The notes below the pieces were generated by a model that worked only from the letters and a program-made list of their open reading frames with translations, was not told the DNA's origin and did not search any database. Positions 20,263 to 50,213 of a stretch of DNA of 64,000 bases are shown here, one piece after another; position 1 is the stretch's first letter; each line of letters starts with the position of its first letter. The DNA is from Bacillota bacterium (GTDB taxonomy: Bacteria > Bacillota_I > Bacilli_A > RF39 > UBA660), in contig SVAI01000001.1 in the NCBI GenBank assembly GCA_015059495.1, positions 1,055,811 to 1,119,810 on the forward strand. Reading direction: 5' to 3'. A program made the translations under genes and the position numbers.

Positions 20263-22080
20263 TTGATGATAACATTTGAATCAGCTCTAAAAGTATTAAA
20301 AAAGTATGGCTATAAATCTAAAGATTCACAACCATATCTATACAAAAATAATAAAGAAATAGGTATTAACTATTCTTATATAGATGATAAGTATGGAATT
20401 ACAGATAGAGTTATTTCCTTCAGAAATGATATTGATTTAGACATGTTCTTAAAAAAATATCAATGGTATAAACTTAATAATAAAAAATATGATGTTAAAT
20501 TAAAATTAAACAATTATGAGATATCTTCACCAGAGGTATTATATATTAGAGATAATCATGTAATGACTGATGATGAAATGTTTAATATTGATTCATATGA
20601 TAAAACTAAGAAGAAAAACAATAGATTATCTCATGCTAAGAAAAAATTAATCGAAGCAGAGAACTTAATGAATCATTATAATAATGAAAAGAGAATCAAA
20701 GAACAATTTGTTAATAATTTTAATGCTAAAGAAAATGAATTAAGAAAAAATTATATTGAATTACAATCTTTAGTAGATACTTATAATAGAACTAAACAAA
20801 ATATTGAATTTGAAAAGTTTGATAATGAATTTGTTACATCAAAGATAATCGAAGATAATATAAATGAATTATTAAATCAATTTAAAGATAAATTACCTAA
20901 TGAAGAAAAGTTATCTAAACTAACTACTTCACTATGGGATTTAAATAAAGACTTAGAACTAAACGAAGCCTATATGTATGCACTAAAGTATAATGATGAT
21001 GTCGATGAAGAACTAAGACTAACAGTAACTAAAATTGATTATATGAATGAATTATTATCTAAAAAAAGAAATATCTTTAAAATCGTAGATCTTAAAAAGA
21101 TATTTAATAATATAGATAATACAAGTACATATGAAAGTATATATGGTGATGATTTTGAAGAAAAATATAAAACATTTGTATATTCTAAATATGATGTACT
21201 AGATAAAATAGATGAATTTAGATTATGTGAATACTTAAATAACTTCAAAACAAGAAAAACATATGATATTGAAAAGAATATTAAGAGATGTTCTCAAAAA
21301 ACTAATAAAAAGAATGAATATGAATCAATGGAAGTTATTCAAAAAGAATTAACTAAACAATATAATGCTAATCTAAATGAAAAAGAAAAAGCAGCATTAA
21401 CATTATATGTATCTTTATATAAACAATTATTTGATTTAATTCAAAGAATTAATAACTATGATACTTTAGAAACTTCTGAATTAATTAATCTATTAAATAT
21501 TACTGATAATTATAATTCATTAATGGATGAATGTTTTACTAAAGTAAAAGAATTATTAAAAGATAATAAAACTATTAAAACTAAAATATTTAAACATATT
21601 AAATTTAATAATGAAGAAGACTTTATTAAATCATTAGTAAGTACCCTAAAAGTAATATCTAAGATTAATACTAAGTTAGTATTAAAACATAACACTAAAG
21701 TATTCTTTACTGTAAGTGATTTAGAAAATATTAATAAAGAAAAGATTATTACTACATCATCTACAATAAGTCCATATATAAATTCTAATAATAAAAATAG
21801 AGTTATATCAGCAAGACTTAAGAAAGGTATTAATATCTTATATTCACCTAAATACTTAAATATCTTAGATAATAAACTAGAATTAATAGATAACAAAGGA
21901 GAATTACTTCTAGATACAAGAGATATTAATATAATATTAGATGATAATATAGTAACTTATACTAGATTTAAATCTAATATAGTTAAAGAAGAAGATTATT
22001 CATATATTGATAAATATGATATTAATTATAAGATTAATATTAATAAAGCTATAATAGAAAAGAGAGATAACAATGAATGA
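20263..22080 (+). CDS. Hypothetical K/N-rich, predicted coiled-coil cytoplasmic protein
   Basis: 605 aa; GGGAGG SD; no recognisable domain. Confidence 0.4.
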   Translation: MMITFESALKVLKKYGYKSKDSQPYLYKNNKEIGINYSYIDDKYGITDRVISFRNDIDLDMFLKKYQWYKLNNKKYDVKLKLNNYEISSPEVLYIRDNHVMTDDEMFNIDSYDKTKKKNNRLSHAKKKLIEAENLMNHYNNEKRIKEQFVNNFNAKENELRKNYIELQSLVDTYNRTKQNIEFEKFDNEFVTSKIIEDNINELLNQFKDKLPNEEKLSKLTTSLWDLNKDLELNEAYMYALKYNDDVDEELRLTVTKIDYMNELLSKKRNIFKIVDLKKIFNNIDNTSTYESIYGDDFEEKYKTFVYSKYDVLDKIDEFRLCEYLNNFKTRKTYDIEKNIKRCSQKTNKKNEYESMEVIQKELTKQYNANLNEKEKAALTLYVSLYKQLFDLIQRINNYDTLETSELINLLNITDNYNSLMDECFTKVKELLKDNKTIKTKIFKHIKFNNEEDFIKSLVSTLKVISKINTKLVLKHNTKVFFTVSDLENINKEKIITTSSTISPYINSNNKNRVISARLKKGINILYSPKYLNILDNKLELIDNKGELLLDTRDINIILDDNIVTYTRFKSNIVKEEDYSYIDKYDINYKININKAIIEKRDNNE

Positions 22081-26161: not shown

Positions 26162-27727
26162 ATGAGTGAACTAGATAAAATACTTAAGAAAGCAGAAAAA
26201 GAACATGATACTTTAAAACATCCATATGTAGGTACTGAACATTTATTATTAGCATTACTTTCATATGATAATGAACTAACAGATTATTTAAAAGAATTTA
26301 ATTTAACTTATAATAAATTTAAAAGAAAATTAATAAATGTAATCGGAGAAGGTACAAAAAAGTCTGCTTATGTTCTTTATACACCTATGCTAAGAAAGGT
26401 TTTAAAAACTGCTAAAGATAATACTGATGAAATAACTTCAATAGATTTATTTAATTCTCTGTTAAATTCAAAAGAGGGTATAGCAATACGTTTACTAGAA
26501 GAATTAAATATTGATGTTGATAATATTGAATTTATTAACAACGAAGAAATAAAAATTACAAATAGAGATGAAGAAATTAACGAGATCTTTCAAATACTTA
26601 TGAGAAAGAATAAATGTAACCCATTGTTAATAGGAGATGCTGGAGTAGGTAAAACTGCAATAGTAGAAGAAGTAGAAAGAAGATTAAAGCATAACGAAGT
26701 ACCAACAAGCTTAATGGGATATAAAATAAAAAAAGTTGATCTATCATCAATACTAGCAGGTACTAAATATCGAGGAGATTTTGAAGATAAAATAAATAAA
26801 TTATTAACATCTATTGAAAACAAAAAGACTATTATATTTATAGATGAAATACATACTCTAGTAAATGCAGGTGGAGCAGAAGGAGCTATATCAGCAAGTG
26901 ATATCTTTAAACCATACCTAGCAAGAGGCAAAATAAAGTGCATCGGAGCAACAACCAATAAAGAATATAACGAATACTTTAAAACAGATGAAGCACTAAA
27001 CCGTAGATTTCAACAAGTAATAATTGATGAACCGGATAATAATAAAACTTTATCTATTTTAAAATCACTAAAAAAAGAATATGAAAAGTATCATAAAGTA
27101 TCAATAGATAATAATGTGTTAAATGAAATTATATACATATCATCAAAATATATAACTAATAAAAAGAATCCAGATAAATCAATTGAACTATTAGATTCCG
27201 TATGTACTAATGCAAGATTTAAAGAACAAAATAAAGTAAAAATGGATAATTTATACGATGTATTTAAATCTAGATATAAACTAGATATATCTAATAAACA
27301 TATAAGAAATATATTAGATAAAAAAGAAATCTTGTTAGCAACTAAAGATTTATTAACAACTATTAACTGCTCAAATATAATTTATATTGATGGAAATGAT
27401 TACAAGAATGATGAAGATCTTCTTAAATTATATGGTAACATAAAATCTAAAGAAGATTATATACTTAAAAAGGCATTAGAAAACCCTGTTGGAGTAATAA
27501 CTATAACAAATTATAATTATAATGAAATATTAAAAGAATTTATATTAAAATTAACATCTAATAGAAATGTATTAGATAATTTTGGTAACAATATTAATTT
27601 TAATAACTATATTATTATCATGGAAAAAACATCATCCAATAATTCAATAGGATTTACTACAAATACTAGTCAAAATAGTGTAATATATAAGGAAATAAAG
27701 CAAAAAACACTACTACCTAGTATATAA
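26162..27727 (+). CDS. ClpC/ClpB-like AAA+ protein with Clp-N repeats and D1 domain only (no D2)
   Basis: Clp_N repeats (HPYVGTEHLLLALL; second repeat around PMLRKVLKTAKD); D1 Walker A GDAGVGKTA, Walker B IIFIDEIHTL, sensor GATTNKEY..NRRF; C-terminal about 170 aa lacks any second Walker A. Confidence 0.55.
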   Translation: MSELDKILKKAEKEHDTLKHPYVGTEHLLLALLSYDNELTDYLKEFNLTYNKFKRKLINVIGEGTKKSAYVLYTPMLRKVLKTAKDNTDEITSIDLFNSLLNSKEGIAIRLLEELNIDVDNIEFINNEEIKITNRDEEINEIFQILMRKNKCNPLLIGDAGVGKTAIVEEVERRLKHNEVPTSLMGYKIKKVDLSSILAGTKYRGDFEDKINKLLTSIENKKTIIFIDEIHTLVNAGGAEGAISASDIFKPYLARGKIKCIGATTNKEYNEYFKTDEALNRRFQQVIIDEPDNNKTLSILKSLKKEYEKYHKVSIDNNVLNEIIYISSKYITNKKNPDKSIELLDSVCTNARFKEQNKVKMDNLYDVFKSRYKLDISNKHIRNILDKKEILLATKDLLTTINCSNIIYIDGNDYKNDEDLLKLYGNIKSKEDYILKKALENPVGVITITNYNYNEILKEFILKLTSNRNVLDNFGNNINFNNYIIIMEKTSSNNSIGFTTNTSQNSVIYKEIKQKTLLPSI

Positions 27728-29749: not shown

Positions 29750-29783
29750 ACAAAAAAAGATAGGAATAAATCCTATCTTTTAT
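29750..29783. terminator. Bidirectional terminator
   Basis: aaaaaaagataggaataaatcctatctttt palindrome between convergent genes. Confidence 0.55.
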
Positions 29784-31921
29784 TATTTATCATATAGATT
29801 TTCTTCTGTTGCAGTTCCTCTAGTTTTACCAGTTGGTGTCCAACCATCTAAACTTGGCTCACTGCTCCATTTGTATTCATATGTAGTAGATGTACTAGTT
29901 ACAGGTATTGGATCAGCACATTCTAGTGAGTGCTTAATACACTTATCTTTATCTAGAATATAACCATCTGGACAACTATAACCTTTTAATCCACCTTTAA
30001 TTGTTTTAATACATTTATCATCAACTAATTGTTCTTCAGCACTTTCACAATAATATGTAGTCTTATCTTCAACATAGATAGAACACTTAGTATTTTCTCC
30101 TTCTCCTTCTTTCTTATAACCAGTAGGACATTCATAAGCATATGTCTTCTTAGTTGTAGGAGTAGTATATTGATAACATGTAGTTCCTTCTCTTACATAA
30201 CCAGTAGGACATGTATATTGAGTTTCAGAAGTATGTGGAGTAGCTGGTTCTGATTTAATACATTGAGTTCCACTCATTGTATAACCAACAGGACAACTAT
30301 AACTTGTACTTGAATTATAAGTTGAATTAACAGTTCTTGTACATGTATTATTACTATTAATATTATATCCAACAGGACAACTATAACTTGTAGTTCCTGG
30401 AGTAGTAGAACAATTCTTATTAGCATATTCATAACATGTAGATGAAGATTGAGTTCTACCATCATTACATGTGTAATATGAACTTGATGTACTAGATGGT
30501 CTAGTCATATAACATGTAGAACCATTTCTATTACCTTGAGGACAATTGTAATTTGTTATAGCAGTATATGTACAATATGTATATGTACATCCTCTAGCAG
30601 TACAATTTTGACCTGTTTTAACTCTCTTAGATGAACTATTTTCATATTCAGATAATTGTCTAGATGAAGTTGTACAACTTGGATTAGACCAAGATCTTGT
30701 AGCGTTAGCAGCTTTAGTACATTGACTTCCACTTGGACTCCATCCACTAGGACAATTACCATAGTTTGTAGATCCTGCATGATATGAACCAGTATAAGTT
30801 CTTACACAGTTTCCACCATTATCTCTATATCCATAAGGACAATTACATGTAGTAGAACCACTTGTAGTTGTTCTAGTAGCATTAACAGTACTTGTACATC
30901 TTAATTGATCAGCACTGATTGTATATCCACTAGGACAAGTATAACTACCAGTCTTATGTTCAATTCTTTGAGTAGTAGCAATACATGATGTACCACTTAA
31001 TGTATATCCACTAGGACATTCATAAGTAGTAGTACCAGGTATTACAGTAGCATTTACATATTTATAACAAATGTTACCATTCTTTGTATATCCTTCAGGA
31101 CATACATCTTCACTTGAAACTTCAATTTTTTTAGCTTCAGCATATTTAGTATATCCACCACTCTTATTTTCTTTAGCATCAGTAGTTTGTACTACATCAT
31201 CAAAGTAAAGTGGAGTAGCAGGAATTGTTTCTCCTGTTTCATACTTATAACATACATTATTATCTTTAACATAACCTTCAGGGCAAGTATAAGTAGTGCT
31301 AGTCTTAGTTATAGCTCTCTTATATTCATATTCAACATTTCCACCCTTATCGTATTTAGAATCACCACTATTAATGATACTTGCATCTATTTCAATCCCA
31401 TCATCTTCATCTTTATCATTTTCAGATTTATCTTTAGATTGATTGTTTGAAGTAGATGAACCATTATCTTTTGATTCTCTATTATTATTTGAACTAGTAC
31501 TTGCAGTAGTTGTATTTAATGTTTCTAAAACATAATCAGTTTTATCATCACAAGATAATTGTACTTTTAAAACATAATTATTATTCTCAGTTTTAGTAAC
31601 TTGAGCAAATGAATTAGTAGTACTACATTCATTATTATCTTTATCAGTAAATTCTGTTATTAATTTCTTATCTAACATATCTTGTAGCTTAATAGTATTT
31701 GAACTACCAGTTTTGCTAGGTAAGTTTTCATTAACAAAATACTTTTCAGCTACATCCTTCATATTATTTAAATTTTCATTATAAACTCTATTATAAAATG
31801 TATCTAATTTAGGAATAGGGAATAACCAAATAAATACTAATATTAATAATATTACAGCAATTAATTTAAGTATTAATCCCTTCCAATCAATTTTAATTTT
31901 AACATTATCCTCATAATACAT
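29783..31921 (-). CDS. Bitopic surface protein with S/T/N-rich linker and 13 tandem CPxGY-x(5-10)-C two-cysteine repeats
   Basis: 712 aa; N-terminal TM ILKLIAVILLILVFIWLF; repeats such as CPEGYVKDNNVCYKY, CPSGYTLSGTSC, CPVGYTMSGTQC, CPTGYVREGTTCYQY; third gene of a minus-strand operon. Confidence 0.5.
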   Translation of the reverse strand: MYYEDNVKIKIDWKGLILKLIAVILLILVFIWLFPIPKLDTFYNRVYNENLNNMKDVAEKYFVNENLPSKTGSSNTIKLQDMLDKKLITEFTDKDNNECSTTNSFAQVTKTENNNYVLKVQLSCDDKTDYVLETLNTTTASTSSNNNRESKDNGSSTSNNQSKDKSENDKDEDDGIEIDASIINSGDSKYDKGGNVEYEYKRAITKTSTTYTCPEGYVKDNNVCYKYETGETIPATPLYFDDVVQTTDAKENKSGGYTKYAEAKKIEVSSEDVCPEGYTKNGNICYKYVNATVIPGTTTYECPSGYTLSGTSCIATTQRIEHKTGSYTCPSGYTISADQLRCTSTVNATRTTTSGSTTCNCPYGYRDNGGNCVRTYTGSYHAGSTNYGNCPSGWSPSGSQCTKAANATRSWSNPSCTTSSRQLSEYENSSSKRVKTGQNCTARGCTYTYCTYTAITNYNCPQGNRNGSTCYMTRPSSTSSSYYTCNDGRTQSSSTCYEYANKNCSTTPGTTSYSCPVGYNINSNNTCTRTVNSTYNSSTSYSCPVGYTMSGTQCIKSEPATPHTSETQYTCPTGYVREGTTCYQYTTPTTKKTYAYECPTGYKKEGEGENTKCSIYVEDKTTYYCESAEEQLVDDKCIKTIKGGLKGYSCPDGYILDKDKCIKHSLECADPIPVTSTSTTYEYKWSSEPSLDGWTPTGKTRGTATEENLYDK

Positions 31922-31932
31922 ATAAATACCCC

Positions 31933-33027
31933 CTATCTAGATCTCTTTCCAAGGATGTCTTCAAATCCTTCATTTACTTTTTGGAATGGAACTGTACCAT
32001 CATAAGATGATATCCATTTAGTTTCTTCTATATTTTCACTCTTACTGAATAAATTATCTACAGCATCAGGACAATATAATCCATCTTGTTCTATTTCATA
32101 TGTTCCACCATTATCAATAATATCTTGTCCGTTATAACCGTAATATAAATCTATACCTTCAGCATCAAGTGTGTGATTCTTTTGATGTTTTCTAGCATTA
32201 ATCATATTACCTGTATTTCTATATTGTTCGTATTGTTCTCTAGCCCAATCAATATATACAACATATTTATTGTATTGTGGAATTGCAGTTCTATAATCTA
32301 AGAAATTCTTAACTATATAATTATATAAATCATTTGCGCTTGCATAATCTGTAGAACCATTAAAGTTCTTTAAGTTATATGATAATTTTTCTCCTTCTTC
32401 CATTATAGTTCTCATATAAGTTCCTTCTGGAATAAGGCTGCTTAAATTTGGTTCTATACCATGTGTAACACAAGATTTATAATAATCAGCTATTATTTCA
32501 TCAAACATCGCTTGAGAATTAATTGAAGACTCAATACCTTTTTGGGTTTCATCAAACATGTTTATGAAATTAACAAAATTAATTACATCTTCTTTTGATT
32601 GGAAACTTTCAGCAAATTCTCCATATTTATTTCTATATTCAACTATTTGATTAAAGAATGCATCAACATTAGAATAATCTAATTCTTCATCACTAAAATC
32701 AAATTCAGCAGTTGTATTAGTGCTTTCTATTGTAGAAGCAATTTCTTCTTCGATAGTAGGTTGAATAACTGTTTCAGTATCTTCAATAATTGTAGAATCA
32801 CTGCTTATATTTTCCTCATTATTTTCATCTGATTTATTAGCTGCATGATGATAACCAAGAGCACATATAACTAAGGCTGTACCAATAGCTATACGACAAA
32901 TAGATTTCTTCATTTCTTCATCAGAATCAAGTTTATCATATTCTTCTTCGTTTATTACTTTATGAACTTTTTCGTCGGTATTGTCATAACTAGACTCAAA
33001 TTCTTTATCTAATTTCCATTTTCTCAT
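31933..33027 (-). CDS. Hypothetical bitopic membrane protein (short acidic cytoplasmic N-terminus, about 300-aa extracytoplasmic domain)
   Basis: 364 aa; TM ICRIAIGTALVICALGY; 11-nt gap from flanking genes (operon). Confidence 0.4.
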   Translation of the reverse strand: MRKWKLDKEFESSYDNTDEKVHKVINEEEYDKLDSDEEMKKSICRIAIGTALVICALGYHHAANKSDENNEENISSDSTIIEDTETVIQPTIEEEIASTIESTNTTAEFDFSDEELDYSNVDAFFNQIVEYRNKYGEFAESFQSKEDVINFVNFINMFDETQKGIESSINSQAMFDEIIADYYKSCVTHGIEPNLSSLIPEGTYMRTIMEEGEKLSYNLKNFNGSTDYASANDLYNYIVKNFLDYRTAIPQYNKYVVYIDWAREQYEQYRNTGNMINARKHQKNHTLDAEGIDLYYGYNGQDIIDNGGTYEIEQDGLYCPDAVDNLFSKSENIEETKWISSYDGTVPFQKVNEGFEDILGKRSR

Positions 33028-33038
33028 GCTATCACCTC

Positions 33039-34658
33039 TTATCCTAATGTTCTAACGTTTTCGTTATCTAAAGCGTTTATTCTTAATTGCATAATGTAAG
33101 AATTATCATATGGTTTAACCTTATTATATACTTTTTTAGCATTTTCTCTTACTTCCGCTGGAACACTATTAAGTTCATTTTGGTATTCAGAACCTTCTAA
33201 ACCGTTTTCTTCAGCACATCCTGAAGCAATTAGCATTGAACTATATCCAGTTACTTGATCAGTAATAGCACTTAGATTCCATATAGCTGCGTAATCATCA
33301 GGTGATAAGTAATCAACAGCGCTATTAATTGCATTATAAGCATTATTTTCATCATCGTAAGAATTATTATTTTGATCTATAGCTTTAGTAGATAAGAATA
33401 ATGTGTTCATTACTTGATATGAATCAAGATTTTCGAAGAACATTGATGTATCAATTCCATTATTATATAATACTTGGAATAATTCATAAGCAGTTTCACC
33501 ACTTAATATAGTATTGTCTCTTGTATATCTAACTAATGCTTCAATAGTTTCACGATTAAACATATCTTTAACTACTGGATCACTTATTTTAGAAATTTCA
33601 CTTTCAATTTTATCGACTGTTTCATATATAACAGTATCACTATTAACATCTAATTCGACTTCATATGGTTCTTCTTCGATTGTTGAAACTTGTTCAGTTA
33701 TTTCTTCCTCAACTTCAGTATCATCATCAATAGAGTTAATCATATTAGTGGCTATAGAATTTTTATCTATACCATTTTCTTCTAAAATAGATTCTGCTCT
33801 CTTAGAAGAATTAGATGAATAGGTTAATATAGCAATTGCTAAAGCAGAAATACCTGCGACAGTTATGAAAGCTTTTGAACCTAAAGATGATAGCTTAACA
33901 GCAAATCTTTCTTTTTTATCTACTTCCTCAACTTTTTCAACCTTTTGAGGTTCTTCTTCAGTATCTTTAAAGATTGGTTTAATATTGTTATCATTTCCAT
34001 TATTTTTAGTATTATCATTATTTTTTTCAATCTTAATAACAGGATCAGTTTTTTCTTCGACTTTTGGTTCTTCTTTTACTTCTTTACTCACATCGTTATT
34101 TTTTTTGCTGTTTTTGATATCTATTATATCAATATCTCTATCCCCATCTTGATTTAATATATCTAAAAGTTCTTTTTTGATATCATCATCATCTTCTTTG
34201 ATATCATCATCATCTTCTTTATAATCATCAATAGTTTCTTGATTAGATTTAGTAGATAACTTACGTTCTAATTCATTAATGTATTCTTCTCTTTCGTCAT
34301 TTAATTTTCTTAAATCTTCATTCTCTTTAAGTAACTTATCTAATTGTTCAATAGATTGTAGATTGCTTTCATTTTCTTGACTTGATTTAGCCATTTCTTT
34401 ATCATATACAGCATCATATTCTGCTCTAGTTTCGCTATTAGATAAAACTTTTATAGCTTCCATAATAGCTGAGAAGTATTGATATTTCTCTTTTTCGCTT
34501 ACTTTCTCCATATTAGCATTGTTTCTTGAAATATCACCGGCAAACATAATTGCACTATTACCATTTCTAATAATTTCTTCAGTAGATGCATCTTTATTTA
34601 CACCTATCATTTCATAATAATTAATAAAAAAACCTTTATTATCATAATACTTTTCCAT
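33039..34658 (-). CDS. Membrane protein with N-terminal J-domain-like module lacking HPD, coiled coil, acidic repeats, TM and extracytoplasmic C-terminal domain
   Basis: YYEMIGVNKDASTEEI...AIMFAGD...YFSAIMEAIKVLSNSETRAEYD aligns with the DnaJ J-domain but HPD is AGD; DDDDIKEDDDDIK repeat; TM FITVAGISALAIAILTY. Confidence 0.4.
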   Translation of the reverse strand: MEKYYDNKGFFINYYEMIGVNKDASTEEIIRNGNSAIMFAGDISRNNANMEKVSEKEKYQYFSAIMEAIKVLSNSETRAEYDAVYDKEMAKSSQENESNLQSIEQLDKLLKENEDLRKLNDEREEYINELERKLSTKSNQETIDDYKEDDDDIKEDDDDIKKELLDILNQDGDRDIDIIDIKNSKKNNDVSKEVKEEPKVEEKTDPVIKIEKNNDNTKNNGNDNNIKPIFKDTEEEPQKVEKVEEVDKKERFAVKLSSLGSKAFITVAGISALAIAILTYSSNSSKRAESILEENGIDKNSIATNMINSIDDDTEVEEEITEQVSTIEEEPYEVELDVNSDTVIYETVDKIESEISKISDPVVKDMFNRETIEALVRYTRDNTILSGETAYELFQVLYNNGIDTSMFFENLDSYQVMNTLFLSTKAIDQNNNSYDDENNAYNAINSAVDYLSPDDYAAIWNLSAITDQVTGYSSMLIASGCAEENGLEGSEYQNELNSVPAEVRENAKKVYNKVKPYDNSYIMQLRINALDNENVRTLG

Positions 34659-34753
34659 ATTCCTTTACCCCCTATAACGAATGAATGTTTCATCCGTTTT
34701 TATTGGTTCTATATACTATCACTTGTCTATTTAAATGTCAAGTATAAGTTCGA

Positions 34754-35750: not shown

Positions 35751-36323
35751 ATGTACAAGTATTATTGTTATATAACTGAAAAAGGACCTATATACATTGT
35801 AAAGGAATTTGAGAAGGTAAATGGACAATTATTTCTAAAAAGAATGTTTGAATTTTATTCTCATGAACCAGTTGAAGAATACTATAATTATTTAATGTTT
35901 AATAAAGGAAATAAATACCTTAGATTTGGTGATTTTGAAATAGATAACGATGACTTTATTACTACTAACTCTCAAATAGTTGAATTAAGTTTATTTCAAC
36001 TAAGATGTATCACAAATGGTTATTTACATGAAGGTATTAATCCGGCTGAAGAAACAAAGAAAATAATTGAAAGTGGTATATCTAGAGAAGAAGCAGACGA
36101 AGCACTAAGAAGAAAATGGGAATCAAAGGTTAAATCTCAAGAAAATATAATTGCTAAAGAAAAAGAAGTGGCAGAAGTAGTAAAAAGATTAAAGAGAAGA
36201 AAAACAAATCATGAAATTGTTAGTAGAAGATCTAATACAAATACTACTGAGGAAGAAAAAAAATTAAAAACTTTTATGTACGTATTTGGAGATTTATTTG
36301 AAGAAGAAGAAATAAGATATTAA
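35751..36323 (+). CDS. Hypothetical protein with K/E-rich C-terminus
   Basis: 190 aa ORF with SD; no domain recognised. Confidence 0.35.
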   Translation: MYKYYCYITEKGPIYIVKEFEKVNGQLFLKRMFEFYSHEPVEEYYNYLMFNKGNKYLRFGDFEIDNDDFITTNSQIVELSLFQLRCITNGYLHEGINPAEETKKIIESGISREEADEALRRKWESKVKSQENIIAKEKEVAEVVKRLKRRKTNHEIVSRRSNTNTTEEEKKLKTFMYVFGDLFEEEEIRY

Positions 36324-39599: not shown

Positions 39600-39682
39600 T
39601 TTTCACATTATTTATATAAAAAAAACACTATAAAGGTATATCATTTAATTATCACATGTGGTATAATCTAACAGAATAGGTG

Positions 39683-40621
39683 ATGCATGTGGAAAAGACA
39701 TTTAAAACACTCGATGAGCAAGTATCCATATTAATTAAAAAGGGATTAATAATAAGTGATATCAACTATACTAAAGATGTTCTTTTAAGAGAGAACTACT
39801 TCTTTCTTATGGGTTATAGACACTTATTCTTCAAAAGTGAAAAGGATAGAGAATTCATTCCTGGAACTACTTTTGATGAACTATATTCAGTATTTAATTT
39901 TGATAGACGAATAAGAAATATCTTATTTAAAAATATCTTAATAGTAGAAAACAATGCTAAGAGTATATTTTCTTATCAATTATCTAAAAACTATGGATAT
40001 AGAGAAAAAGATTATATTAATCCAAGAAACTTTACTAAAGAAGCTAGTAGAAGAAGACAAGTAAATGATCTTTTAAAGAAAATGCAAAGACAAATAAGAA
40101 TCAATGGTGGACAACATAGTGCAACAATGCACTACTTAAGTAATTATGGTTACTTACCACTATGGATTGCAGTTAAAGTATTATCTTTTGGTATTGTATC
40201 TGAATTATTTACAATACTAAAACAAGAAGATCAACAAGCTATAGCACAAATATATGGAATACCAATTGATGATTTAATTCAATATTTTCCAATATTAGCA
40301 AATTATCGTAATCTATGTGCTCATGAAGATATTTTATTTGATCATAAATCTCAAAGAATAATTCAAGATACTAAATATCATAATTATTTGAATATTCCTA
40401 AAATGGATGGAGAATATATTTATGGTAAAGATGATCTATTTGCTTTAATAATAATATTAAAGAGAATTCTAAGAGATGAAAACTTCCATCAACTAATTCA
40501 AGAAATATCATATGAAATGGATATATTAAGCGGAAAACTTAAAACCATAACTATAGACAAAGTTATGGATATGATGGGATTCCCATCAAATTATAAAAAT
40601 ATACTAAGGACGGATTTATAA
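39683..40621 (+). CDS. Abi_2-family (AbiD/AbiF-like) abortive-infection-like protein
   Basis: Architecture and motifs (PLWIAVKVLSFGIVSELF, NYRNLCAHEDILFDHK) reminiscent of Pfam Abi_2; extended -10 TGgTATAAT at 39658-39667 just upstream. Confidence 0.5.
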   Translation: MHVEKTFKTLDEQVSILIKKGLIISDINYTKDVLLRENYFFLMGYRHLFFKSEKDREFIPGTTFDELYSVFNFDRRIRNILFKNILIVENNAKSIFSYQLSKNYGYREKDYINPRNFTKEASRRRQVNDLLKKMQRQIRINGGQHSATMHYLSNYGYLPLWIAVKVLSFGIVSELFTILKQEDQQAIAQIYGIPIDDLIQYFPILANYRNLCAHEDILFDHKSQRIIQDTKYHNYLNIPKMDGEYIYGKDDLFALIIILKRILRDENFHQLIQEISYEMDILSGKLKTITIDKVMDMMGFPSNYKNILRTDL

Positions 40622-41764: not shown

Positions 41765-42154
41765 ATGGTGATTATTATGAAACAACTTAAAACAATATCA
41801 ATAGTATGGGGATTACTTATCCTTGTAGTATTTACATGTTTAACTATATTTGCTTTAAAATGGAAAAAAGATATTTATCCATATACTTTATTAGAAGACA
41901 AATTAGTAACAGCTACTAAGAAATTTTATGAACAAAAATATTCATATCCTGCTAAAGGTCAATCAACATATATAACTTATGATGAACTAAAAGAAAACGA
42001 AATGATTGATGAACTTAAAAAAGATGATGATACTTGTACAGGATTAGTTAAAGTTACTATGAATAATGTAGTTGAGTATAAAGCATATATTAAATGTGAT
42101 AAATATACAACAAAAGAATATGATAAATATATAGATTATATTAATAAAAAATAA
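41765..42154 (+). CDS. Hypothetical membrane-anchored protein
   Basis: 129 aa; N-terminal TM. Confidence 0.3.
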   Translation: MVIIMKQLKTISIVWGLLILVVFTCLTIFALKWKKDIYPYTLLEDKLVTATKKFYEQKYSYPAKGQSTYITYDELKENEMIDELKKDDDTCTGLVKVTMNNVVEYKAYIKCDKYTTKEYDKYIDYINKK

Positions 42155-47576: not shown

Positions 47577-49532
47577 ATGAAGAATAAGGGATTTACTTTA
47601 ACTGAAATAATAGCAGTAATAGTTATACTTGGAATACTAATTGCTATAGGTACTCCAGTATACTTTACAATATCTAATAATACAAAACAAAAAGAACTTA
47701 ATAACAAACTTGAATATTTAAAAGCACAAGCTATTAAATATGCTGAAGAAAATACTATTGATACATCTAAAACTATTGCAGCAGGAGCTTTAGTATATGA
47801 TGGTTATGTAGTAGCAGATAAATATGTAAAAGAACAAGGTGAAGAAATTCCATTTATAATTAATCCGGCAGACGATGATGATAATCTAGCCTGTAGAATT
47901 ATTAATATTGGAGTTAATGATTATGACTACACAGCTAAAGTAACAGATGATAGCAATTGTGACTTAATTAATGAAGATACTTTTGCAAATGAAATAGGCG
48001 TTAAAGTATATAAATATTACAATAATACTTTAACTGAATTAATAGATATAAAAGAAGAGAATAAGAACTGGGTTAATACTGATGTAGCAGTTGTAATTAA
48101 TCCAACTTATGAAAATATTTTAAGTACAAGAATAACTCATCAAGGAAAAACAATTGAAGTAAATAAAAACAATATTTTAACTGAACCATCAATAGGATTA
48201 AGAATTAATCAAGCTTATTCTAATGTAGTTATTGTTACAGCAGCTACTGTATTAAAAGATGAAATACATGTAGCAGTTCAAACAAAAGACTCAATTAAAA
48301 ATGCTGTAATTAAAATTAATATAGATAAAGAAGAACCAGGAATTAAATCAAGTGCATATGACGGATGGACTAAAAAAGATGGTAAGAATGCCAAAGCATA
48401 TGTAAGCGATGGTAATGGATCAGGTGCTAAATATGTATATATTACTGCTGAAAATAATATAGGTATGAAAAATATTTATAATAGATTTGAAGTAATAGAT
48501 GAAGTAGCTACTATTAATCATGGATATGATTTATATGAAGGTGTTAATACACCATTATCAAATGGCACATATTACTTATGGGCAGAAGATGAAGTAGGAA
48601 ACGTAACTTCATATTCAACTGAATTAGTAATATCTAATTCTGATGCTATAGCACCAACATGTGAAATAAGAAATGATAATTCAGTATGGAAAACTGAAAC
48701 AAGAAAAATTATTTATGGATGTGTTGATAATGAATCAGGATGTTCAGTTGACAACAGTGGATATTCTAAAGATGTTAATTATTCAACTAAAAAACAAATA
48801 ATGGAACAAACAACACTAGTTGATAATACAGGAAATGAAACAGTTTGCCCTGAAAGAATAGTTGATGCATATGTTGATATAGATAATCCATATATTGAAT
48901 CTATAAGTGTTCAATCGCAAGATAGTAGATTTAATACTACTAATACAAACGTTGTAGTAAAAGCTAAAGATGATCACAGTGGATTAAAATCAGTTTGTGT
49001 ATTAATAGATGATAAAAAAATAGAACATTGTAAATGGGTAGATGTAGATGCTACAACTATTGATACAATTCATAACGAGGGACCTATATCATATACATTT
49101 AAAGTACCAACTACTATTGGTAGATATGACAGAAAATCTCCAGCATCATATCAAGTATATGCATATGTAAAAGATATTTTAGGACATGTAAGTGAAATTA
49201 AATCTAAGTCATATGCTACATATAAATACTGTGATGCCCAAACAAGAACTGGTGAGTCTGGTTATGGAGGCTGTTCAGCAGATTGTGGTGGCGGATCACA
49301 ATCAAGAACTGTATATTATAGTGATAAGTACTTCTCAAATCAAACTTGTCCAAATGGTTCTGAAAGTCAAAGCTGTAATACTCACGATTGTCCATCAAGC
49401 AGCGAAAGTGATTGCTGTACTTCTGCATCAGAAACAGACGGACATGGTTCTGGACCTGGACACTGGGGATGTACATGTGCAGACGGTTCATGGCATGGTG
49501 GATGTAGTGGACCTGGAGCATCAGATTGCTAA
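47577..49532 (+). CDS. Large type IV pilin-like (class III signal) protein with Cys-rich thrombospondin-type-1-like C-terminus
   Basis: N-terminus MKNKG|FTLTEIIAVIVILGILIA matches prepilin cleavage/methylation motif (G/FTLxE); C-terminus GCSADCGGGSQSR...CPNGSESQSCNTHDCP resembles a TSP1 repeat; 651 aa. Confidence 0.5.
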   Translation: MKNKGFTLTEIIAVIVILGILIAIGTPVYFTISNNTKQKELNNKLEYLKAQAIKYAEENTIDTSKTIAAGALVYDGYVVADKYVKEQGEEIPFIINPADDDDNLACRIINIGVNDYDYTAKVTDDSNCDLINEDTFANEIGVKVYKYYNNTLTELIDIKEENKNWVNTDVAVVINPTYENILSTRITHQGKTIEVNKNNILTEPSIGLRINQAYSNVVIVTAATVLKDEIHVAVQTKDSIKNAVIKINIDKEEPGIKSSAYDGWTKKDGKNAKAYVSDGNGSGAKYVYITAENNIGMKNIYNRFEVIDEVATINHGYDLYEGVNTPLSNGTYYLWAEDEVGNVTSYSTELVISNSDAIAPTCEIRNDNSVWKTETRKIIYGCVDNESGCSVDNSGYSKDVNYSTKKQIMEQTTLVDNTGNETVCPERIVDAYVDIDNPYIESISVQSQDSRFNTTNTNVVVKAKDDHSGLKSVCVLIDDKKIEHCKWVDVDATTIDTIHNEGPISYTFKVPTTIGRYDRKSPASYQVYAYVKDILGHVSEIKSKSYATYKYCDAQTRTGESGYGGCSADCGGGSQSRTVYYSDKYFSNQTCPNGSESQSCNTHDCPSSSESDCCTSASETDGHGSGPGHWGCTCADGSWHGGCSGPGASDC

Positions 49533-49544
49533 AAGGAGAATAAT

Positions 49545-50213
49545 ATGAAGAAGAAATTAATAATAGTATTTGTAATAATAATTATTGCTTTAGCAGGATG
49601 CTTTATTTACTTTAAAATTAATAATAATAAATATTTATTTAAAGCATATCTAGAGGAACATAATGGTAACTATACACTAGTCATAAGAAATAAAGATTAC
49701 TTTAGTTTTAATGAAATGTGGAAAGTAGAAGATTTAACAAGAACAAATGGAAATTTCAAAATGCTTCCATGGACACTAGATTCTAGAATTAAAAAAATAA
49801 CAAAAGTAGATATTCAAGACAACATAAAAGTAGATTCACTTGCGTTATGGTTTTATGGATTTGAAAATCTAGAAGAAATAAAAGGATTAGATAAACTAGA
49901 TACATCATCATTAACTAATCTTTCAGCGGTATTTTACAATTGCAAATCTCTAAAAGAATTAGACTTAAGTATGTTGGATACAAGAAAAGTAACACTAACT
50001 GACAATATGTTTGCTAACTGTGAAAATTTAACTACTATATATGTTGGTGAAAATTGGAATATGGATAAAGTTGAAGAATCAACAGATATGTTTAAAGGAT
50101 GTACAAATCTAGTCGGACCAAATCAAACTGAATACAATGAATATGTTGTAGATAAATCATTTGCACAAGTAGATGATTTAGATAATGCTGGTTATTTAAC
50201 ACTTAAAAATTAA
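49545..50213 (+). CDS. BspA-type leucine-rich-repeat (LRR_5) lipoprotein
   Basis: Lipobox LAGC after signal peptide; repeats LTNLSAVFYNCKSLKELDLS..., MFANCENLTTIY, MFKGCTNL. Confidence 0.5.
   Translation: MKKKLIIVFVIIIIALAGCFIYFKINNNKYLFKAYLEEHNGNYTLVIRNKDYFSFNEMWKVEDLTRTNGNFKMLPWTLDSRIKKITKVDIQDNIKVDSLALWFYGFENLEEIKGLDKLDTSSLTNLSAVFYNCKSLKELDLSMLDTRKVTLTDNMFANCENLTTIYVGENWNMDKVEESTDMFKGCTNLVGPNQTEYNEYVVDKSFAQVDDLDNAGYLTLKN

Follow-up and report, generated by a model that had tools for sequence, protein, structure and literature searches.

The locus and its neighbours

The gene described here belongs to a three-gene operon on the minus strand of the window (the whole 64-kb stretch of DNA that was analysed, whose positions are used throughout). 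The operon and its flanking signals are as follows.

29755-29781, no strand assigned: bidirectional terminator-like hairpin, directly past the stop codon
29783-31921, minus strand: complete open reading frame (ORF call) of the candidate Cys-hairpin surface protein, 712 aa plus stop
31933-33027, minus strand: upstream operon gene, a 364-aa bitopic membrane protein with two invariant Cys; intergenic gap of 11 nt
33039-34658, minus strand: first operon gene, 539 aa, with an N-terminal J-like domain lacking HPD, an acidic region, a TM helix and an extracellular domain
34713-34741, minus strand: promoter-like site TTGACA-17-TAGTAT with TG, 5' of the operon (consensus match only)

The reading frame of the 712-aa gene is intact, with a GGGGT ribosome-binding site 7 nt 5' of the ATG, and a codon alignment with a 93%-identical homologue (L001) gave a dN/dS of 0.28 for the whole gene, 0.04 for the N-terminal ectodomain and 0.41 for the linker. 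A search beyond the source genome, which a previous sequence-only reading had proposed, recovered 211 homologues of 32-94% identity, nearly all full-length, in RF39-type gut MAGs. Because the frame is intact and is accompanied by a ribosome-binding site, a promoter-like site, a terminator, low dN/dS and these 211 homologues, the gene is real, constrained and under purifying selection, and is not the pseudogene that the same reading had allowed for. Its product is a conserved protein of an uncultured gut bacterium of the order RF39 (class Bacilli), for which a location at the cell surface is somewhat favoured.

The 712-aa gene is a core gene that occurs in single copy, is strongly conserved and keeps its synteny next to housekeeping genes; its neighbours across loci are cysS, a ClpC-like gene, TspO and pheST. 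Within the operon, the 364-aa gene is present in three of the five Cys-repeat loci examined (with homologues in L003 and L005), and its product had no Pfam, NCBIfam or PHROG match. Counterparts of the 539-aa gene lie immediately upstream in four other loci (L003, L005, L006 and L002); for the 591-aa protein of L002 no BLAST similarity was detected, and only the J-like N-terminus aligns. The 364-aa and 539-aa proteins are alike only around the TM segment. J-domains are marked by an HPD tripeptide between helices II and III, which is absent from the 539-aa protein and its four syntenic homologues (five aligned); the match to Pfam DnaJ reached 27.5 bits, just below the cutoff of 27.8, and by its sequence the protein is best described as J-like only, not as a J-domain protein. 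A disulfide between the 712-aa protein and the sole Cys of this neighbour was considered and rejected, as that Cys is not conserved. An association with phages was likewise rejected, with one match in 2.9 million viral contigs and no PHROG match. The window also encodes PBP1A, Amidase_3 and a weak SLT match, and since peptidoglycan is predicted in most RF39 (PMC10868615), we conclude that the host has a cell wall.

Cysteine-hairpin repeats and their likeness to EGF

The protein contains 37 Cys, an odd count that is conserved. A regular expression, C-[P]-x-G-[YWN]-x(4-12)-C, identified 12 strict units, and one degenerate unit brings the total to the 13 counted previously; all of the example peptides quoted at that time are present. 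Each unit holds exactly two Cys, as had been claimed, so that 26 of the 37 fall within units and 11 outside them (C99/C124, C625/C637, C359, C416, C440, C445, C450, C504 and C668). All features of the repeat region listed here are on the minus strand.

31250-31285: unit 1, CPEGYVKDNNVC, aa 213-224, invariant Cys pair
31067-31102: unit 2, CPEGYTKNGNIC, aa 274-285, invariant Cys pair
30983-31018: unit 3, CPSGYTLSGTSC, aa 302-313, invariant Cys pair
30896-30937: unit 4, CPSGYTISADQLRC, aa 329-342
30806-30841: unit 5, CPYGYRDNGGNC, aa 361-372, with C359 just before it (C359 co-occurs with C504)
30719-30754: unit 6, CPSGWSPSGSQC, aa 390-401
30545-30718: central non-repeat module, aa 402-459 (C416, C440, C445, C450), the best-predicted part (pLDDT 86-92)
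30512-30544: unit 7, CPQGNRNGSTC, aa 460-470
30434-30469: unit 8, degenerate, CNDGRTQSSSTC, aa 485-496, in only 18 of 61 homologues
30341-30379: unit 9, CPVGYNINSNNTC, aa 515-527
30260-30295: unit 10, CPVGYTMSGTQC, aa 543-554, invariant Cys pair
30176-30211: unit 11, CPTGYVREGTTC, aa 571-582, invariant Cys pair
30083-30130: unit 12, CPTGYKKEGEGENTKC, aa 598-613, invariant Cys pair
30011-30049: CP-less invariant Cys pair C625/C637, CESAEEQLVDDKC, aa 625-637
29939-29974: unit 13, CPDGYILDKDKC, aa 650-661, invariant Cys pair

When residues 195-712 were shuffled 20,000 times, CPxG[YWFN] motifs occurred at a mean of 0.023 and a maximum of 2, compared with the 12 observed, and the CPxGY motif is absent from every other ORF of the window. 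The unit consensus from 865 units is tY[TS]-C-P-x-G-Y-T-L-N-G-x-x-C-x-K with a period of 28 aa, and the C-x10-C loop is found in 865 of 1,065 units. The description of the repeats as tandem stands in part: spacing is 25-32 aa for most units, but three gaps of 61, 70 and 52 aa, filled by conserved non-repeat inserts, interrupt the series. In the central module, W411, Y426, C440, Y447 and Y449 are nearly invariant.

At the DNA level, direct repeats of about 24 bp had been noted, and an exact 24-mer is indeed present twice, its coordinates differing by 2-4 nt from those given before.

30285-30308, no strand assigned: exact 24-bp direct repeat CCAACAGGACAACTATAACTTGTA, copy 1, encoding part of ..TSYSCPVG..
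30369-30392, no strand assigned: the same repeat, copy 2, 84 nt (28 codons) from copy 1

The remaining units are only 60-79% identical in DNA, and TRF found no array of 84-nt period. Copy-number variation between strains, which had been suggested as a check, was not seen between relatives of 93-95% identity; these have the same repeat number and differ by a 4-aa linker indel or one codon, whereas unit number ranges from 4 to 17 between species. With diverged DNA copies and an unchanged repeat number in close relatives, recent repeat expansion and strain-level copy-number change were rejected.

Structure prediction with AF2 gave a mean pLDDT of 74.5 for the whole protein, with most of residues 195-703 at 70-92 and two short dips near aa 353-358 and 505-510; the pTM of 0.29 means that the model does not fix the overall shape, whether a rod or folded back. 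DSSP analysis of the model assigned to every unit a three-residue strand at C+5, a two-residue turn and a second strand bearing the second Cys, which is consistent with the two-Cys beta-hairpins proposed from the sequence. Ten Cys pairs show no variation across homologues, and where Cys columns appear or disappear they do so two at a time, along with whole repeats. Co-occurrence was perfect both for C504 with C359 or an alternative column (28/0/0/33) and for C440 with C445 or an alternative column (57/0/0/4). From the model and these paired columns, we infer that each unit would form a two-Cys beta-hairpin closed by its own disulfide.

An EGF-like resemblance had also been suggested, and the Pfam model cEGF (PF12662), which represents only the C-terminal half of the EGF domain, matched the protein at 31.6 bits against a gathering cutoff of 26.6, in four stretches covering model positions 5-20 of 24; homologues scored higher (65.7 bits for P0005 and 48.2 bits for P0029), and EGF_Tme5 was also above its cutoff in the 712-aa protein. 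Because the cEGF score is a sum of short repeats, it indicates membership at the level of a motif only. The EGF domain has six conserved Cys, joined 1-3, 2-4 and 5-6, within about 35-45 aa. The present unit is not a full EGF domain, since it has two Cys and not six; these lie in 28 aa, with Tyr at the C4 position. The whole-EGF models PF00008 and PF07645 gave no match even at E up to 10, EGF_3, whose cutoff is 28.5 bits, scored no more than 15.1 in one homologue, and no NCBIfam family model matched the 712-aa protein at E up to 10. Thus, the statement that the repeat corresponds to no named bacterial domain is half true: the unit matches the named cEGF half-domain, but it is not an EGF domain and no bacterial family model covers the protein. 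Profile searches of the PDB with the full protein, the N-domain and the tail returned chance or motif-level matches only (a zinc-finger array, P12p, Sushi and a Geobacter pilin helix at E 0.57), and no structural relative was found in the PDB or BFVD.

Conserved ends and the wider superfamily

The protein is a mosaic, in order, of a short tail, one TM helix, an ectodomain of ~100 aa, a linker, a beta-rich repeat region and a conserved C-terminal tail, all encoded on the minus strand.

31877-31921: N-terminal tail, aa 1-15 (MY...I.W.K), conserved and probably cytoplasmic; M1 and W13 invariant, Y2 and I11 nearly invariant
31820-31876: single TM helix (signal anchor), aa 16-34, the sole hydrophobic segment; AF2 helix 13-33
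31508-31819: conserved N-terminal ectodomain, aa 35-138; AF2 on the domain alone, pLDDT 86 and pTM 0.66
31340-31507: disordered S/N/D/K-rich linker, aa 139-194, pLDDT 28-40
29939-31339: beta-rich repeat region, aa 195-661, 13 C-P-x-G-Y...C units plus inserts, all-beta in AF2
29786-29938: conserved C-terminal tail, aa 662-712, the odd Cys C668 followed by YEYKWS....LDGWTPTGKTR, with invariant residues

Of the architecture read earlier from the sequence, the N-terminal membrane anchor and the low-complexity stalk (pLDDT below 50) were borne out and glycosylation of the linker was not supported. Neither the N-terminal ectodomain nor the C-terminal tail had been noticed, although conservation is highest in these two parts. 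An N-in/C-out topology appears probable, though the bias in charge between the two flanks of the TM helix is slight (K+R of 2.2, with +1 in the helix, versus 1.8). In the ectodomain, AF2 predicts a helix at 39-61, a strand at 74-78, a short helix at 79-84 and three strands at 105-136, and the Cys pair C99/C124 is invariant; the domain had no Pfam match, and no PDB match by sequence or by Foldseek. The linker, with a column conservation of about 0.3 and frequent gaps, holds the sole indel relative to a 95%-identical homologue (P0001), and is probably a wall-spanning spacer. The tail consensus is Y-x-Y-K-W-S...L-x-G-W-x-x-T-G-K-T-R, with a gap of x4-6 between W-S and L and with Y683, W685, S686, G693, T697 and G698 invariant; it had no Pfam or PDB match and no known relatives, including no match to LysM, SH3b, CWB, GW or SLH. 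The protein ends in ...ENLYDK, with neither LPXTG nor a hydrophobic segment.

The N-domain was present in 117 of the 120 best homologues, and its profile matched 1,782 representative protein clusters (E up to 1e-3) as well as the 712-aa protein itself (E 5.5e-66, with a profile partly built from that protein). The N-domain and tail recur together in hundreds of other protein clusters; Cys-poor superfamily members combine them with a middle of Big_2 or Flg_new, and a few members end in a second TM helix and not in the tail. A Flg_new version (L007) shares the pheST/rubrerythrin locus with the Cys-repeat versions L003, L002 and L006. It is the N-domain and the tail, rather than the repeats, that define this unnamed superfamily, to which the 712-aa protein is assigned by its match to the N-domain profile and its W-S...G-[WY]-x-x-T-G tail. 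Neither of these two parts is covered by any Pfam or NCBIfam model, a literature search found no paper on the family, and the homologues carry no family name, with JGI labelling three of them (P0010, P0031 and P0116) as TraN-like mating-pair stabilisation proteins.

Proposed function and comparison with known systems

We favour, with a probability of roughly 0.55, the interpretation that the protein is a surface stalk that is anchored at its N-terminus, spans the wall and presents a conserved tip. This interpretation is suggested by the sister proteins that share its N-domain and tail and carry Big_2 or Flg_new in place of the repeats, Big_2 being known as a domain of fibrillar-adhesin stalks (PMC8286594). 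Anchoring by the N-terminus would take the place of an LPXTG motif, and the disordered linker would thread the peptidoglycan layer; the disulfides of the units, together with further ones that may include a long-range C359-C504 bond, would rigidify an elongated, protease-resistant stalk, which would in turn keep the C-terminal tail, its presumed functional (binding) end, at a distance from the cell, much as fibrillar adhesins do. The 712-aa protein had no adhesive-domain Pfam match and no ligand is identifiable. Two further points count against this interpretation: Firmicutes generally keep Cys out of their exported proteins (PMC2823432), and none of the 23 window ORFs scanned for families matched a thiol-disulfide oxidoreductase. 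Fast-evolving adhesins, moreover, are less often encoded by single-copy core genes, and such a gene would fit an envelope-structural role as well.

Such a role, in which the N-terminus sits in the membrane, the tail binds the wall or a wall polymer, and a swappable stalk sets or stabilises the distance from membrane to wall or from wall to surface layer, would be in keeping with the core-gene behaviour, the synteny beside pheST or cysS, and the strong purifying selection at both ends, which are kept while the stalk is interchanged. Wall-binding modules often have aromatic and Gly-rich C-terminal motifs, a point that we count in favour of this tether or spacer. We nevertheless regard it as rather unlikely, given that the tail matches none of the known wall-binding families searched and is replaced by a second TM helix in the few superfamily members noted above.

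Alternatively, the N-module could be a degenerate type IV pilin. The protein would then be a 'modular pilin' serving a type IV pilus or pseudopilus system, perhaps as the subunit at its tip or base that carries the Cys-rich stalk. As in pilins, a TM helix is followed by a long helix, a beta-sheet and a Cys...Cys bracket; a true prepilin of 651 aa, extended by a Cys-rich part, is encoded 16 kb away; and aa 14-61 gave weak in-register matches to this prepilin (pairwise E 0.022) and to the Geobacter pilin helix (E 0.57). Moreover, a metagenomic prepilin (P0326; MKKA|FTLIELL, Pfam N_methyl) has the same beta-sheet head (profile E 3e-16), although it is a single 533-nt contig and a possible chimera. 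Type IV pilins are marked by a class III signal peptide with G-1, a hydrophobic +1 residue and E+5. Here no G-1/F+1/E+5 is conserved, the consensus being INWKxxIIKxIL without Gly and with Lys in place of Glu, and N_methyl, TIGR02532 and the NCBIfam pilin models were unmatched, whereas the true prepilin of the window does match N_methyl and TIGR02532. A Foldseek search with the N-domain model found no pilin in the PDB (best E 0.4), the hhalign probability against the window's prepilin was 1.8%, and the operon contains no pilus biogenesis genes. A pilin derivation is thus unlikely.

We consider it very improbable that the protein descends from a eukaryotic EGF protein by horizontal transfer and mimics EGF-family ligands or matrix proteins of the host. 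The cEGF and EGF_Tme5 scores above cutoff and the motif C-P-x-G-Y-x-L-x-x-G-x-x-C, as in cbEGF and Sushi, speak for this origin, but there are two Cys per unit and not six, only positions 5-20 of the 24 in cEGF are matched, and no whole-EGF model is. Furthermore, the repeats lie between bacterial-specific N and C modules common to the Big_2 and Flg_new proteins, the synteny is vertical, and convergence can yield a motif of 12-16 residues.

Binding of a metal (Zn or Fe) by the Cys pairs instead of disulfide formation, either in the cytoplasm or outside the cell, is similarly remote. In its favour, the periodic Y-x-C-P spacing led a profile search to hit, spuriously, a designed C2H2 zinc-finger array (E 5e-4); the habitat lacks oxygen; and neither a Dsb-like enzyme nor any thiol-disulfide oxidoreductase was identified among the 23 window ORFs scanned for families; CxxC occurs in only three window ORFs, which look intracellular. 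The protein nonetheless has no CxxC knuckles and no His partners, its C-x10-C loop flanks a single predicted hairpin and matches the cEGF disulfide loop, and its sister proteins carry the extracellular Big_2 and Flg_new domains. Identity with F-type TraN, an outer-membrane protein of Gram-negative bacteria that is also Cys-rich and whose name the JGI labels invoke, is effectively refuted by the lack of any match at E up to 10 in NCBIfam, which holds F-type TraN models, by the monoderm Bacilli host, and by the chromosomal housekeeping context (cysS, ClpC-like, TspO and pheST) free of conjugation genes.

The gene is conserved across RF39, a group of uncultured bacteria with small genomes that are commonly found in the guts of humans and animals and of whose cell surface, to our knowledge, almost nothing is known. 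As a tentative extension of the favoured stalk, which we hold to be possible but doubtful, the superfamily may constitute an undescribed surface-display system of RF39 and related reduced-genome gut Bacilli, in which an N-anchor module and a C-terminal tip are joined by swappable stalks, one of them a new disulfide-hairpin repeat of 28 aa, derived from an EGF fragment or of independent origin. In that case, the presence of ~18 disulfides in a strict anaerobe would mean that these Firmicutes have a so far unrecognised route of oxidative folding outside the cytoplasm, an unpaired conserved Cys (C668 or one of a membrane-proximal cluster) could act as a shuffling thiol or a site of covalent dimerisation, and the J-like membrane protein might be a dedicated biogenesis partner. 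As exported proteins of Firmicutes generally exclude Cys (PMC2823432), an exported protein with 37 of them would point to unexplored disulfide-bond biology. The N-anchor domain, the 28-aa Cys-hairpin repeat and the C-terminal tail are three candidate new domain families, and the protein itself is a candidate RF39 surface marker or antigen.

The protein is not a new kind of biological system, for surface stalks built of repeats have been described before, as have EGF-like hairpins, and its function is one that we infer. Its units have in common with cEGF (the C5-C6 'minor sheet' of fibrillin, C1r and thrombomodulin) the motif C-P-x-G-[YF]-x-L-x-x-[DN]-G-x-x-C, a predicted one-disulfide beta-hairpin and a serial arrangement in an extracellular protein; they differ in lacking the N-terminal EGF half with disulfides a and b, in a period of 28 aa compared with about 40 in EGF, and in their bacterial host and bacterial-specific flanking modules. 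Sushi/CCP modules and Plasmodium 6-Cys proteins show local matches to Y-x-C-x-x-G-Y-x-L-x-G that are not significant as domains, and their Cys count and fold differ. F-type TraN is Cys-rich and envelope-associated, as here, but in another type of envelope and genomic context. Modular type IV pilins fuse a pilin module to a functional C-terminal domain, as in PilB and PilC of S. sanguinis; here too, an N-module of helix plus sheet, with one putative disulfide, precedes a large additional domain, though without the prepilin cleavage/methylation motif and E5 and outside a pilus operon. Fibrillar adhesins, with their SasG/Aap G5-E, Rib or Big_2 stalks (PMC8286594), also have a long, repetitive, beta-rich extracellular region, to which the 13 repeated units correspond, and a low-complexity spacer adjoining the anchor. 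In contrast to these adhesins, the present protein is a conserved single-copy gene product with no recognisable adhesive domain, has an N-terminal TM helix and conserved domain and not a C-terminal LPXTG cell-wall anchor, and would be stabilised by putative disulfides where theirs rely on isopeptide bonds or a hydrophobic core.

Gene, anatomy and repeat unit of the 712-aa protein

The Cys-repeat protein of 712 aa is encoded by a real gene, which is the last in a row of three minus-strand genes separated by gaps of 11 nt and has a Shine-Dalgarno sequence (GGGGT) located 7 nt 5' of its ATG.

The 712-aa gene, its J-like partner, and flanking signals
29783-31921, minus strand, ORF of the 712-aa protein (ORF call)
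33039-34658, minus strand, gene of a J-like membrane protein, with syntenic genes in the related loci L002, L003, L005, and L006
34741-34713, promoter-like site ahead of the three-gene row (consensus match only)
29755-29781, bidirectional terminator hairpin directly after the stop codon of the 712-aa gene

Relative to the 93% identical homologue in L001, which derives from an "uncultured Tenericutes bacterium" MAG, the gene as a whole has a dN/dS of 0.28; by region, the value is 0.04 for the N-terminal domain, 0.41 for the linker, and 0.33 for the repeats. Strain-level change in repeat copy number, which the sequence-only reading had proposed checking, was not observed among relatives of 93-95% identity; the sole length difference is a 1-codon offset near aa 522 in L001 and a 4-aa indel in the linker in homologue P0001, which retains every Cys of the 712-aa protein.

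In each of the five Cys-repeat loci that were examined, the J-like protein gene lies directly 5' of the Cys-repeat gene; it is absent at both non-Cys loci, L007 (Flg_new) and L008. Its product starts with a J-like domain and also has a TM helix and an extracellular domain. Given that the J-like domain scores below the cutoff (27.5 vs 27.8 bits) and that the HPD tripeptide is missing in all five loci, recruitment of DnaK should not be assumed. A 364-aa middle gene of no known family occurs at three of these five loci. Elsewhere in the window, a short ClpC-like protein (26162-27727, plus strand; 521 aa, made up of Clp_N, a single AAA module, and a lid) is encoded next to TspO, as it is in L005, and two plus-strand ORFs, of 605 aa (20263-22080) and 190 aa (35751-36323), had no match in Pfam or NCBIfam.

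The window has a G+C content of 26.5%; the protein contains 37 Cys, and its commonest residues are Thr, Ser, Tyr, and Asn. An AF2 model of the full protein, built on a 61-sequence alignment, had a mean pLDDT of 74.5 and a pTM of 0.29, and the N-terminal domain modelled by itself reached a pLDDT of 86 and a pTM of 0.66.

Regions of the 712-aa protein (predicted structure from AF2)
aa 13-33, TM helix
aa 40-136, compact N-terminal domain (long helix 40-61, strand 74-78, short helix 79-84, three strands within 105-136)
aa 139-194, disordered region, pLDDT 28-40
aa 195-703, all-beta region
aa 225-273, conserved insert separating unit 1 from unit 2
aa 402-459, central non-repeat module, the best-predicted part of the model (pLDDT 86-92)
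aa 625/637, invariant Cys pair lacking CP
C-terminal end, conserved tail YEYKWSSEPSLDGWTPTGKTR, with Y683, W685, S686, G693, T697, and G698 invariant

The repeat region is of mosaic build and not a simple tandem array. Invariant residues of the N-terminal domain include C99/C124, as well as W13, P35, N50, Y61, P68, G72, F91, and D93.

The count of 13 repeat units was borne out by a pattern search, which recovered 12 matches to C-P-x-G-[YWN]-x(4-12)-C and one degenerate copy, CNDGRTQSSSTC. Shuffling the repeat region yielded a mean of 0.023 motifs and a maximum of 2 in 20,000 trials, compared to the 12 found, and no further copy of the motif turned up when the window was translated in all six frames. 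The 24-bp direct repeats previously noted in the DNA also exist, at positions slightly different from those first reported: an exact 24-mer recurs at 30285-30308 and 30369-30392, 28 codons apart. DNA identity of the remaining unit copies is 60-79%, and TRF detected no array of 84-nt period (just four tiny low-period hits), indicating that the repeats are old and not the product of a recent expansion. Homologues carry between 4 and 17 CPxG[YWF] units.

We derived a unit consensus from 1,065 units in 120 homologues. The modal period was 28 aa, and 865 of the units had a C-x10-C loop; residue frequencies were calculated on these 865. As the match pattern presets both Cys, the G at +3, and an aromatic residue at +4, only the choice of Tyr is informative at +4.

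Consensus of the C-x10-C units (percentage of 865 units)
-2, Tyr, 78%
+1, Pro, 98%
+4, Tyr, 93%
+7, Asn, 57%
+8, Gly, 86%
+13, Lys, 72%

Consistent with the earlier proposal of one small hairpin per unit, the AF2 model predicts in every unit a strand of three residues beginning at C+5, then a turn of two residues, often N-G, and a further strand carrying the second Cys.

Cysteine pairing and the wider superfamily

Ten Cys pairs are invariant across the 61 aligned sequences, and between species whole repeats are gained or lost together with both their Cys. Cys at C504 and Cys at C359 (or in an alternative column) are either both present or both absent (28/0/0/33 of the 61 sequences for both, either alone, and neither), and this co-occurrence implies a long-range disulfide that would close a loop of ~145 residues. 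The same kind of pairing holds for C440 and C445, the latter again with an alternative column (57/0/0/4 of 61), whereas the 712-aa protein and its closest relative are alone in having both C416 and C450. After pairing, one Cys of the protein is left over; an odd number of Cys was found in 100 of 116 full-length homologues. The extra residue is C668 near the tail in 29 of 61 sequences, and the final Cys of a C-x3-C-x4-C cluster just past the N-terminal domain in 26 (homologue alignment columns 141/145/150), with the two never found together (0/61). The conserved odd Cys may stay free as a thiol, link two chains into a covalent dimer, or act as a built-in thiol for disulfide shuffling.

We detected 211 homologues of the 712-aa protein (32-94% identity), nearly all full-length and all unnamed, and the few source names among them were "Bacilli bacterium" and "Candidatus Coprovivens sp.", the latter belonging to family CAG-1000 of the GTDB order RF39 (PMC8035907). 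Three homologues are labelled "TraN" by JGI; this assignment was rejected, as NCBIfam gave no match and the gene context is housekeeping.

A profile of the N-terminal 138 aa recovered 1,782 representative clusters at E <=1e-3, 869 at E <=1e-10, and 309 at E <=1e-30. Among the best 150 of the 1,782, many are Cys-poor and lack CPxGY units, with middle regions that match Big_2, Flg_new, or nothing recognisable; these members often share the tail Y-x-W-S-x(4-8)-L-x-G-[WY]-x-x-T-G-x-[TK]-[RK]. The Flg_new version P0139 (locus L007) occupies the same position adjoining pheST and rubrerythrin as the Cys-repeat versions in L003, L002, and L006, and the shared locus together with the shared ends indicates that the middle region has been exchanged in place with both ends kept. 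Neither end had a relative in Pfam, NCBIfam, or the PDB. The window also encodes a stand-alone paralogue of the N-terminal domain, a 129-aa membrane protein without a Pfam family (41765-42154, plus strand; local hmmsearch E 3e-5 among 113 ORFs, profile positions 15-126), in which the Cys...Cys bracket is kept. In 2.9 million viral contigs, the sole relative of this domain was found at 2266-2670 of L009 (IMGVR_UViG_3300006217_003302), with 35% identity.

A proposed surface stalk and its alternatives

These results best fit an N-in/C-out surface protein with a stiff disulfide-hairpin stalk displaying the conserved tail. The disordered linker would cross the cell wall, and the hairpins, closed by disulfides and arranged in series, would build a rigid stalk that resists proteases and presents the C-terminal tail. 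The stalk interpretation draws on the exchange with Flg_new and with Big_2, which is known as a stalk domain (PMC8286594), as well as on the all-beta prediction and the composition. A peptidoglycan wall has been predicted for most RF39 (PMC10868615), and the window encodes PBP1A and Amidase_3, together with a weak SLT match. An Amidase_3 gene and an HtrA-type protease gene (Trypsin_2 + PDZ) flank an Abi_2 (abortive-infection-like) gene at 39680-40621 (plus strand).

The 712-aa gene behaves as a core gene, which makes an envelope-structural tether a serious alternative to a displaying stalk. A pilin origin of the N-terminal domain is a minor possibility: the domain has weak in-register similarity to pilin, and one prepilin, P0326, has the same head, but the cleavage motif is missing from the family, a Foldseek search was negative, and hhalign gave a probability of 1.8%. 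P0326 (140 aa, on a 533-nt metagenomic contig) has a true prepilin N-terminus (MKKA|FTLIELL, Pfam N_methyl), and its residues 75-135 are near-identical, by eye, to the N-domain head found in subfamily-B homologues; P0326 represents a natural mosaic of pilin and N-domain or else a chimera produced by assembly.

The window encodes another Cys-rich exported protein of "eukaryote-like" type, of 651 aa with 20 Cys (47577-49532, plus strand), which looks like a modular pilin. Its genuine prepilin N-terminus (MKNKG|FTLTEII; Pfam N_methyl 25.3 vs cutoff 21.2, TIGR02532 28.2 vs 16.3) is joined to an extracellular portion of ~600 aa, and the Cys-rich tail at the end of this portion has matches to thrombospondin type-1 (TSP1) that stay below threshold. 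Directly downstream, at 49545-50213 (plus strand), is the gene of a 222-aa protein with DUF285 (a "Mycoplasma" family) and BspA-type leucine-rich repeats.

Comparison with known stalks and EGF domains

Repetitive bacterial surface stalks are known as a kind of protein, as is the hairpin motif, and we found no description of this family in the literature or in curated models, including NCBIfam. What is new is a bacterial stalk built on a 28-aa two-Cys repeat, the N-anchor and tail modules, which lack annotation and are common to about 1,800 clusters, the conserved odd Cys, and a predicted heavily disulfide-bonded exported protein within a Firmicutes lineage; exclusion of Cys from exported proteins has been reported for Firmicutes (PMC2823432).

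The resemblance to EGF-like loops suggested by the sequence-only reading is supported. Pfam cEGF (PF12662) matched the 712-aa protein above its cutoff (31.6 vs 26.6 bits, model positions 5-20 of 24), as did EGF_Tme5 (23 vs 22 bits), and cEGF scores in homologues reached 48 and 66 bits; the unit is therefore the counterpart of the EGF half-domain that holds C5 and C6. Models of the whole EGF domain had no match to the protein. The short motif also weakly matches Sushi modules and one Plasmodium 6-Cys protein, which makes it a recurrent disulfide-hairpin solution, and 12-16 residues are too few to establish homology to EGF. The unit does not conform to the definition of an EGF domain: the latter has six Cys, whereas the unit has two and carries a Tyr in the place of C4.
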